DNA of 64,000 nt from Escherichia coli. GTDB taxonomy: Bacteria > Pseudomonadota > Gammaproteobacteria > Enterobacterales > Enterobacteriaceae. A program made the position numbers. Positions 6,001 to 9,000 of the stretch are shown here, one piece after another (the first letter of the stretch is position 1; each line of letters begins with the position of its first letter). The stretch lies in NCBI RefSeq assembly GCF_030013205.1, contig NZ_CP122648.1, one strand, 5' to 3'.

Positions 6001-9000
6001 CAGAAAAATGCAGAGAACAACGCTCGTTATATCGCTGCATTTAATCCTGCGGTTGTACTGGCATTGCTCGATGTATTGGACGCATCGCTGGATGTGAAGC
6101 CTGTAGCGTCATGCATTGTTGAAGATGGGGGTATGTGTGTTGACGGGTTCAGTGAGTATGTTGGTCACTCGCTGCCTGATGGGATGCATGAGCTTTATGC
6201 TGCCCCGCCAGCGTCGGTAGTGCCGGAAGGACTAGTTAAAGCAGTGCGTTTCTATGAACAGGTAAAGTGTGAGAATCCGCCAGTCGAAACCGGAGCATGG
6301 AAAAACGCGGTTGACTGGGTGCTCAACGAGGCTTGCCAGGCTGTAAACATTGGCATCAAAGGAGCGTGAGATGAATGGACAAATATCAATTGTTCGACCG
6401 GGAGCATGTGACGATTGCGAGATACGAATGATTATTCGTCTGGCGAGGGGGAAAACAATAACTGCTCTCATTACTCCTGAAAATCTCGCATTAGCATTAA
6501 CAGGAAAGTCAGACCTGCCAGTAGAGCTAAAGCTGCGAAATATTGAGATTAAAGTGAAATAGTTATGAATACTCTTACCAAAGAATGGTTACAGAACACG
6601 ATTACCGGAATTGAGTCGATAATAGACGATAAATCGTTTGTATGTAGTGAAATAGCATTCGAAATAGGTCAGGTTAACAACATACTTACCGCATTTAAAA
6701 TTGCACTGGCATCGCTGGCAGCAGTATCGGATGAACGGGCAGCCTATGAATTATTTATGGAGAAGCGTTTCGGGGAATCTGTAGATCGCCGCAGGGCAAA
6801 AAATGGTGATAGAGAATACATGGCATGGGATATGGCGCTTGGCTGGATTATCTGGTGTCACCGCGCCGCCATGCTTCAGGGAGGCCAACCTGTAAACCAA
6901 ACTTACAACTTGCCAGAATTAATCGAAGGCATGGAAGTTTCCATTGATGTTAGCACTTGTGATGCTGATTTAGGTAATCGCTATTTCGGCACCGTCACCG
7001 AGGCGTTAGAACTTGATACAGCCAAGAATGGTTACATCCTCCTGGTTCAGGACGCAGAGCCTAACTTCGATGTAAATGGCAACTCTCCGGGAACTCCGGA
7101 TAGTTGGATAAGCTGTAGTGATCAAATGCCTGAAAAGGGCCAGAACGTGCTTATTTCGGTGAATTTCGATAGCTCTCTGGTTGAACCGCTAATATGCTCC
7201 GCACGCTATACCGGAAGCACCTTTCGGCGCGGAGATGCAACGATTAAGCCGGGTAATGGTATTGAGCAAGCAACTCACTGGATGCCGCTACCGGAACCGC
7301 CGCAGGAGGTGAAGTGATGAACAACTTAATGATCGACCTTGAGACGATGGGGAAAAATAAGGATGCACCGATCGTTTCCATTGGCGCGGTGTTCTTCACT
7401 CCAGAAACCGGAGACATCGGACAAGAATTCTATACGGTTGTTAGCCTGGAAAGTGCTATGGGGCAAGGAGCTACACCTGACGGCGATACCATCCTGTGGT
7501 GGTTGAAACAAAGCCCTGAAGCACGAGCTGCAATCTGTATTGATGATACTTTGTCGATCAGCGATGCTCTCTCAGAACTAAATCATTTCATTAACCGGCA
7601 CGCAGCCAATACGAAATATTTAAAAGTCTGGGGTAACGGGGCCACCTTCGACAACGTAATTTTACGTGGAGCTTATGAGCGAGCAGGACAAATCTGCCCT
7701 TGGGCATACTGGAATGACCACGATGTACGCACGATCGTTACGCTTGGGCGTTCCATCGGATTCGACCCCAAAATGGACATGCCTTTCGATGGCGAACGGC
7801 ACAACGCCCTGGCCGATGCCCGTCATCAGGCAAAATATGTTTCCGCTATCTGGCAGAAATTAATTCCTGCCACCAGCACAGAATTATGATTTTCCCGGGT
7901 GCAGCCGGTTTTGATGGAGAAAATTATGAACACCTTGTTTTTACTGATGGCTGAATTCAATACCCCTAACATTGAACTCTCAGCAGTTAGCCAAAAGTAC
8001 TTTGGCATGAGTCCAGCCACGGCAGAAGCAAAAGCAAACGCTTGTAAGTTGCCCGTTCCAACATATCGCATCGGCACATCACAAAAAGCAAAACGTTGCA
8101 TCAATATTCAGGATCTTGCGGAATACATAGACAAAAGACGAGAAGAAGGACGTATCGAGTGGGAACAGGTCAGAACAAGCAAACAGAAGGGCAAAGAACA
8201 TCACTAAAGAAAAAACCCGCCTAAAGCGGGTTTTCAAAAAGCACCAGCTATGATCATGCTGCTTTGCGACGACGAAGCTTACCCTGCTGCTCTTTACCAG
8301 AGACAGTAGCGTGAGTGAACGCATTAGGAGCAGCCTTCATCAGAACTTCAACAGCAGCACCCATACCTGCGAATGCTTTCATTGTGTCGAACTTAACCTG
8401 TGGCTTGGTTGCTTTTTGATCTTCCATAGAAAACTCCAGAAGCTATACCGAAACAATTCCTGTTGTTTACTCATCATCAATAGATGATACGCAATATTTA
8501 TTTTTAAATTTAAGGTTCTTTGGCGTAACTTCATCAGATATATCAAAACCGTCCAGAATTCTATTGAATGTAGCTTCTGGCATATCATCATGAACGGAAA
8601 TCTCACCCGATCGCTGCTTTCTAACCATGTTATCCACTCGCCAAATTATAGCTTCAGCGTAAACAACATAACTTGGATGCTTGATAAAGCGATGATCACC
8701 AGAATTCAAGACGCAAGACGGATCGTGGGGGACACCATCCTTGATACTAGAAATATTAACAACTAAAACACAATAACAATCGTTAACGGGGTAATAAACA
8801 GGATCATTACAAATCACATGAAGATGATTGCATGGCCCAGTTGGGGCAAGCACAGTTCCTTTCCTGTATGGCTGATAATCCGTCATGATAATTGCAAAGA
8901 AAATTCCTTAAGTTTCTGAGATTCTTCCATTTTGCCAATTATACGATTAGCCTCATCCTCGCTTTTACCCTCACTGATCAGCATTTCTTTCAGGTCTATA

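Follow-up and report, generated by a model that had tools for sequence, protein, structure and literature searches.

Our analysis of a 64,000-nucleotide (nt) stretch of Escherichia coli DNA (contig NZ_CP122648.1 of RefSeq assembly GCF_030013205.1; the window, below, means this whole stretch) indicates that a 57-amino-acid (aa) open reading frame (ORF), found near the right-hand terminus of a dusA-integrated prophage, is an orphan. Specifically, we hold, with a probability of roughly 70%, that the gene derives from a cassette consisting of a GNAT gene and a mini-protein gene and that its partner was replaced by a Panacea-type gene pair; its product may be a labile neutraliser or regulator of the now absent GNAT enzyme. 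The gene and its immediate signals are the following.

8254-8427, minus strand: the 57-aa ORF, MEDQKATKPQVKFDTMKAFAGMGAAVEVLMKAAPNAFTHATVSGKEQQGKLRRRKAA, a member of PHROG 2741; its allele, 'E2', is the most frequent one in the Panacea-type lineage.
8437-8434, minus strand: the Shine-Dalgarno (SD) sequence GGAG, read from the sequence and followed by TTTTCT (6 nt) and then by the ATG at 8427-8425.
8235-8211, both strands, better on the minus strand: an intrinsic terminator hairpin, an 11-bp stem followed by UUUUUU on the minus strand, common to this gene and a convergent excisionase gene.

The ORF is a genuine coding gene of temperate enterobacterial phages, and more than a chance frame. RefSeq genomes, IMG/VR, phage records and contigs representing one genome per species supplied 102 loci, and the 174-nt frame was uninterrupted by stops or frameshifts in 102/102 of them. 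Pairwise Nei-Gojobori ratios of nonsynonymous to synonymous substitution rates (dN/dS) between genera were 0.04-0.25, and variable sites at codon positions 1, 2 and 3 numbered 17, 17 and 41; the initial annotation of this stretch had suggested just such a check of conservation and synonymous substitution, and its outcome supports the frame that it reported. The gene is also already known to catalogues, as a hypothetical protein. Positions 8200-9500 of the window are identical to E. coli ETEC4079, where the Prokaryotic Genome Annotation Pipeline (PGAP) records the 57-aa product as WP_000390072.1, so that the ORF was "unannotated", as first described, only against a 60-aa reporting cut-off. Further, the protein matches PHROG 2741 (function not known) with an expect value (E) of 8.4e-36, residues 1-57 aligning to a 57-position profile, and the gene occurs in 561 of 5426 complete E. 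coli genomes as well as in phages mEp460, SKA5 and Lys8385Vzw.

Most signals that the initial annotation had described, namely GGAG 6 nt before the ATG, an upstream in-frame stop and the basic C terminus GKLRRRKAA, were verified in the sequence. The terminator needs a correction, as the ORF had been said to end 2 nt from its A-run, while the measured gap from the stop codon (8256-8254) to the terminator stem (8235) is 18 nt. In-frame stops lie 6 and 14 codons 5' of the ATG (7 and 15 with the ATG counted), the farther one being the stop of the preceding 139-aa gene, which occupies the same frame. A purine-rich SD (GGAG, GAGG or GGGG) precedes the small gene in all genera, as judged from the alignment and a listing of spacers, and a terminator lies 3' of it in each genus examined, even at loci without a convergent xis. 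Folding energy 5' of the ATG in the window was the same as that of shuffled sequence (z +0.32). An antisense ORF at 8311-8487 (plus strand) was rejected, being open in some genera only.

The family itself is small, with homologues of 53-61 aa confined to the phages of Enterobacterales. An exhaustive profile search of 1.8 billion proteins yielded 13 genuine representatives at 50% identity (14 were listed, including a spurious one, the 939-aa profile match P0100, rejected as a repeat-protein artefact) and no distant relatives with known function. Alignments define the motif FDT-x2-AF-x-x-MGAAV-x-VL-x-KAAP ... E-x-QG-[KR] ... [AV]A-COOH, every element of which is present in the window protein; the conserved parts are the FDT, an amphipathic helix rich in small residues (AFAGMGAAVEVLMKAAP), the E-x-QG-[KR] and a basic tail, which ends in AA, VA or AAA in all 50%-identity representatives (RRRKAA, SRKAVA, ARKVAA and LKQEAA). 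In an AlphaFold2 (AF2) model of the protein (predicted local distance difference test score, pLDDT, 66), residues 15-32 form the only helix and the tails are disordered. Pfam and NCBIfam hold no family for it; searches of Pfam, NCBIfam and PADLOC with the 57-aa protein, the 139-aa protein and the 177-aa protein introduced below gave nothing usable, and sequence-profile matches of the searched proteins in the PDB were spurious coiled-coil or repeat hits only. No paper was found in full-text literature for the accessions or the peptide sequence, and the keywords GNAT, small protein and prophage returned nothing specific.

Elsewhere, the fixed partner of the 57-aa gene is a GNAT-fold gene that is missing from the window. 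All E. coli carriers fall into two arrangements: in 204 genomes the small gene follows a Panacea gene and the 139-aa gene, as in the window and, for example, in ETEC4079 and an ST131 strain, while in 358 genomes, an arrangement that includes mEp460, O157:H7 and O111:H8, it follows a gene for a 177-aa protein and a 196-nt spacer. Beyond E. coli only the second partnership is seen, and in 13 of 13 taxa (12 genera), the E. coli GNAT type included, the 57-aa gene, or a homologue of 54-58 aa, comes directly after a homologue of 176-184 aa with this fold. The other taxa are Salmonella, Enterobacter hormaechei, E. mori, Hafnia, Buttiauxella, Pseudescherichia, Franconibacter, Escherichia sp. ESNIH1, Edwardsiella, Serratia, Photorhabdus and Brenneria. 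The converse, a GNAT gene without the 57-aa gene, was encountered in 0 of 361 E. coli records. The 177-aa protein (gp23 in mEp460, WP_000956557.1) has no Pfam match; its AF2 model is a GNAT fold (pLDDT 84; predicted template modelling score 0.83), and among the generic GNATs that are its best PDB matches in Foldseek are AtaT, TacT3 and KacT. The two genes occupy at least four positions in phage genomes (between attP and xis, in the int-xis region; between the Q antiterminator/DUF968 genes and the lysis genes; in a tail/baseplate cluster; and next to a cI-like repressor), and these differing positions mark the pair as a mobile two-gene cassette.

In its native layout, the cassette runs from the GNAT gene (177-179 aa) through a spacer of 93-196 nt to the small gene (54-61 aa) and an intrinsic terminator. 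The spacer (3805-4000 of the mEp460 locus L002, 4823-5000 of L012 and 4859-5000 of L009) has a conserved extended -10-like element, TGnTAGGAT, directly after the GNAT stop, and conserved palindromes, namely TTACCTTAAAGGTAA, CACCAATCG...CGATTGGTA and a GAGAC...GTCTC that abuts the SD. By sequence, these elements could be a promoter of the small gene's own plus a structured leader, or operator sites. There was almost no covariation in the spacer by RNAalifold, despite the conserved hairpins, so an RNA element is not claimed, and Rfam had no family either there or in the window region. Relative to this layout, the window lacks the GNAT gene 5' of the 57-aa gene and has the Panacea and 139-aa genes in its place; both the TGnTAGGAT element and the palindromes are gone, 39 nt of unrelated sequence separating the 139-aa stop from the ATG, and the terminator after the small gene is present. 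In Hafnia paralvei prophages (L009 3150-4109 and L010 3051-4109), we also observed a RelA_SpoT-domain protein directly 5' of the GNAT + 57-aa cassette, in the cargo region between Q and lysis, which matches the PADLOC candidate defence family PDC-S33 (E 1e-112).

When the two E. coli types are aligned, the limits of the replaced segment can be placed closely.

8438-8443, minus strand: right-hand swap junction, where aligned similarity to GNAT-type prophages starts, just 5' of the SD.
9648-9649, minus strand: left-hand swap junction, where the aligned sequence common with the GNAT type (the dusA fragment, ...TATTGGGAACC) ends.

Between these points nothing is shared, the common sequence resuming only at GGAGTTTTCTATG, and by megablast the 204 Panacea-type records match a GNAT-type query only from 7-13 nt before the 57-aa ATG. 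The exchanged segment thus measures about 1.2 kb (window positions ~8441-9648), with the 57-aa gene on its constant flank, and it follows from these alignment boundaries that the GNAT gene, together with its promoter and spacer, was exchanged for the Panacea pair and its promoter. A Lys2-to-Glu substitution (K2E) is linked to the Panacea type, whose proteins begin MEDQ and not MKDQ. This hinted that the Panacea cassette might have brought a small-gene copy of its own, an idea that we rejected, since no Panacea + 57-aa arrangement was found outside this E. coli lineage.

Loss of the partner is accompanied by a change in the selection acting on the small gene. The counts below are of segregating sites, taken without a phylogeny and from loci that include partly redundant IMG/VR entries, and pN/pS is the ratio of nonsynonymous to synonymous polymorphism.

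57-aa gene, Panacea-type (44 loci): 9 nonsynonymous, 4 synonymous, pN/pS 0.66.
139-aa gene, Panacea-type: 2 nonsynonymous, 11 synonymous, pN/pS 0.05.
Panacea gene, Panacea-type: 8 nonsynonymous, 21 synonymous, pN/pS 0.10.
xis, Panacea-type: 7 nonsynonymous, 13 synonymous, pN/pS 0.14.
57-aa gene, E. coli GNAT-type (43 loci): 0 nonsynonymous, 4 synonymous, pN/pS 0.00.

The 9:4 split of the 57-aa gene in Panacea-type loci differs from the 10:32 of the two module genes (Fisher p 0.006) and from that of the same gene in GNAT-type loci (p 0.03), and is indistinguishable from the neutral expectation (p 0.51). A collection of 5.8 billion proteins, moreover, held about 14-16 distinct frameshifted, truncated or indel-bearing alleles with the Panacea-linked MEDQ start, versus 2 with MKDQ, an excess over the 204:358 ratio of genomes (binomial p <= 2e-4). 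For two of the broken alleles, P0029 and P0042, the contig of origin was identified, and on it the Panacea and 139-aa genes are intact. Frameshifts or stops in related elements, the finding that the initial annotation had named as telling against its proposal, do therefore occur at Panacea-type loci, and the module genes are intact there. Purifying selection on the 57-aa gene is relaxed where the GNAT gene has been lost, and the gene appears to drift.

Several observations weigh against reading the window's gene as a decaying orphan. The majority Panacea-type allele (27 of 44 loci are identical to the window's) is intact and its SD is good; expression may thus continue, and a measure of function could persist. 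Few sites enter the polymorphism test (13 vs 42), with no phylogeny and with partial redundancy among the IMG/VR loci, and the excess of broken alleles hinges on how lineages have been sampled in public assemblies. Finally, the asymmetry by which the GNAT gene is never found without the small gene probably rests on a single replacement event.

With these points in mind, we propose that, in the dusA-integrating E. coli phage lineage to which the window belongs, a Panacea-antitoxin and 139-aa toxin pair with its own promoter replaced the GNAT gene and the spacer; the right-hand crossover fell at the SD site, and the 57-aa gene kept its SD, coding frame and terminator. It would now most likely be expressed via read-through from the Panacea operon. 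Its product, as modelled, would consist of one amphipathic helix flanked by disordered tails, with an invariant basic ...[KR]x[AV]A C terminus like those of ClpX degrons, and without the GNAT enzyme it would have little or nothing to do in the window. The more specific suggestion, that the protein is a short-lived binder of the GNAT enzyme acting as its antidote or regulator, is offered tentatively, at somewhat less than even odds. We favour such a role because linkage to the GNAT-fold enzyme is strict, because the small gene survives without the enzyme and the reverse is never seen, and because constraint is lost where the enzyme is missing.

Two other accounts of the ORF fare poorly. It could in theory have been a chance frame or a noncoding feature, for example, the 3' untranslated region of the toxin mRNA or a small RNA, and its shortness, together with the lack of a matching Pfam or NCBIfam family, would fit this; yet strong purifying selection between genera, the third-position bias, the conserved length, the existence of a PHROG family and the absence of an Rfam match all speak the other way, and we consider the idea refuted because of the dN/dS values and the frame conserved across those 12 genera, leaving it a probability close to nil. 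The initial annotation had suggested that the toxin-antitoxin module of Panacea and 139-aa genes might have the ORF as a third component, such as an adaptor or regulator. Only 39 nt separate it from the 139-aa gene on the same strand; no terminator intervenes and a common one follows. Kurata et al. 2022 (PMC8832971) describe accessory third genes beside some PanAT pairs as occasional and sporadic, and as probably having no general role. However, the 57-aa gene is not part of this module. Homologues of the 139-aa protein are found in many genera, each one examined being paired with a Panacea protein; these loci are in Yersinia phage YeP1 (where an integrase gene comes directly after the pair), Klebsiella phage ST13-OXA48phi12.5, Pseudomonas phage Sirocco and Enterobacter prophages, in which tail genes K and I flank the pair. 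No 57-aa homologue was detected near the pair in these Yersinia, Klebsiella, Pseudomonas or Enterobacter phage loci, within flanks of 1.5-2.5 kb, by tblastn (E<=10) with five diverse family members or by a hidden Markov model with filters off. Thus, the pair is self-contained in four other phage backgrounds, the cassette boundary falls between the 139-aa gene and the SD, the small gene varies as a neutral sequence would and is broken at some loci where the module genes are intact, and its universal partner is another gene, GNAT, all of which makes a third component very improbable. The alternative that the initial annotation had also raised, an independent small phage gene, comes closer, in that nothing ties the gene to the Panacea pair; everywhere else, however, it is the fixed downstream partner of the 177-aa GNAT-fold gene.

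The remaining accounts differ over what the small protein does. The main alternative to an antidote is that it serves as a substrate, cofactor or activating subunit of the enzyme (e.g., as an acetylated effector peptide), in which case the window's copy would be an orphan all the same. We regard this as possible, although on the doubtful side, given that we could identify no modification site, that the N-terminal residues following Met differ from genus to genus, and that the conserved helix and C-terminal tail point to binding and turnover instead of an N-terminal substrate. Less likely again is an autonomous gene that still functions in the window, either as an orphan antidote against GNAT-carrying relatives (anti-addiction or cross-immunity) or in a GNAT-independent, host-directed role. 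In its favour, about 204 complete E. coli genomes that lack the GNAT gene retain the small gene with SD, full frame and terminator, the intact allele seen in the window is the most frequent of the Panacea type, and the observed asymmetry fits the fact that orphan antitoxins, unlike orphan toxins, are tolerated. It must, however, accommodate a pN/pS well above the 0.05-0.14 of the flanking genes, the abundance of frameshifted or truncated alleles in this very lineage, no other genus having the 57-aa gene minus the GNAT gene, and the loss of the native promoter and leader. A bolder extension of these ideas, which we consider unlikely, is that the GNAT + 57-aa cassette is an undescribed phage-borne toxin-antidote or defence unit, with a minimal one-helix, ClpXP-labile antidote encoded downstream of a GNAT toxin under its own promoter and structured leader, and that the window's copy is a stand-alone antidote immunising the lysogen against GNAT-carrying competitor phages.

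The orphan interpretation can be set beside several known systems. In the type II toxin-antitoxin pairs AtaR-AtaT, TacA-TacT and KacA-KacT, the antitoxin is small and sensitive to proteases and inhibits the enzyme by binding it through a C-terminal helix or peptide, and the native partner of the 57-aa protein likewise has a predicted GNAT fold, with AtaT, TacT3 and KacT among its best structural matches; the 57-aa protein is itself predicted to be approximately one helix with disordered tails. These pairs nevertheless differ from the cassette in several respects. The gene order is reversed: in those pairs the antitoxin gene comes first and is translationally coupled to the toxin gene, while in all native cassettes the enzyme comes first and the small gene follows after the spacer of 93-196 nt with its own promoter-like element. 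The 57-aa protein also lacks a ribbon-helix-helix or other DNA-binding domain (by Pfam, NCBIfam, PDB sequence searches and AF2), and there is no sequence similarity. Moreover, the GNAT gene is absent from the window. The Panacea pair of the window resembles PanA-PanT modules (Kurata et al. 2022, PMC8832971), in that the Panacea stop overlaps the start of the small-protein gene and the pair is phage-borne and conserved across genera. Unlike their accessory genes, the 57-aa gene lies outside the swapped cassette and is absent with the pair in other backgrounds; since it does not travel with the pair, it is not an accessory gene of a PanAT module. A closer parallel is found in the orphan antitoxins and remnant genes of prophage "moron" hotspots, which share with it a position beside a variable attP-xis cargo slot, a lost partner, relaxed constraint and sporadic frameshifts, although the 57-aa gene is only a putative antitoxin and its commonest allele is intact and translatable. 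As to turnover, the ClpX C-terminal degrons comprise C-motif 1, with ssrA ending ...LAA, and C-motif 2, with MuA ending ...RRKKAI (PMC12723719). The family C terminus, a basic run and then AA, VA or AAA (...LRRRKAA in the window), resembles both, a likeness of sequence only.

Hence, the Panacea / 139-aa pair should be treated as a two-gene module, with the small ORF removed as a false lead to an adaptor or regulator. The locus shows neatly how one cassette can replace another in the cargo slot that dusA-integrating phages have between attP and xis, and how a stranded partner starts to decay. It also draws attention to the GNAT + mini-protein cassette, an uncharacterised unit with tight linkage that about 6.6% of complete E. 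coli genomes carry (358/5426) and which is a more worthwhile experimental target in its intact form than the window's orphan copy.

On the minus strand, the order is promoter-like site, Panacea gene, 139-aa gene, 39 nt of intergenic sequence, 57-aa gene and terminator. The other features of the neighbourhood are as follows.

9610-9582, minus strand: promoter-like site, a consensus match only.
8883-9455, minus strand: 190-aa Panacea (DUF4065/SocA-like) antitoxin-type gene, named by PGAP, with Pfam PF13274 on its homologues and a weak NCBIfam SocA match.
8467-8886, minus strand: 139-aa putative toxin of the swapped-in Panacea pair, its start overlapping the Panacea stop.
7899-8207, plus strand: convergent excisionase of the PrtN/pyocin-activator family (PHROG 1300, E 8e-40; PGAP), the constant flank across the terminator.

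The start of the putative toxin is ambiguous. The ATG at 8886, which overlaps the Panacea stop (ATGA), gives 139 aa, and PGAP uses a later ATG for a version of 128 aa; homologues in other genera have 132-150 aa. In E. coli 90-3040 (locus L006 3714-3875), an internal deletion leaves a 53-aa remnant of this gene, and the Panacea and 57-aa genes are intact.

The attachment-site end of the prophage, at ~9650-9813 on the minus strand, consists of a phage-borne dusA 5' fragment (~9709-9813) and repeated GGGAACC motifs; beyond that fragment the order is a DUF2713 gene, zur, yjbJ and dinF. This end and xis bound the cargo slot, and the integrase must be encoded at the opposite end of the prophage, beyond this part of the window. 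Both the window (6565-7317, plus strand) and mEp460 (gp27) carry an intact 250-aa DUF551-type ORF; the identical ETEC4079 record has it as a PGAP partial pseudogene plus a short coding sequence, probably an annotation artefact. In E. coli NR3736 (locus L007 2327-3361), the 57-aa gene is separated from xis by an inserted gene for a 344-aa protein like the competence protein CoiA, an insertion that displaces the shared terminator and so marks a second cargo insertion point in the slot.

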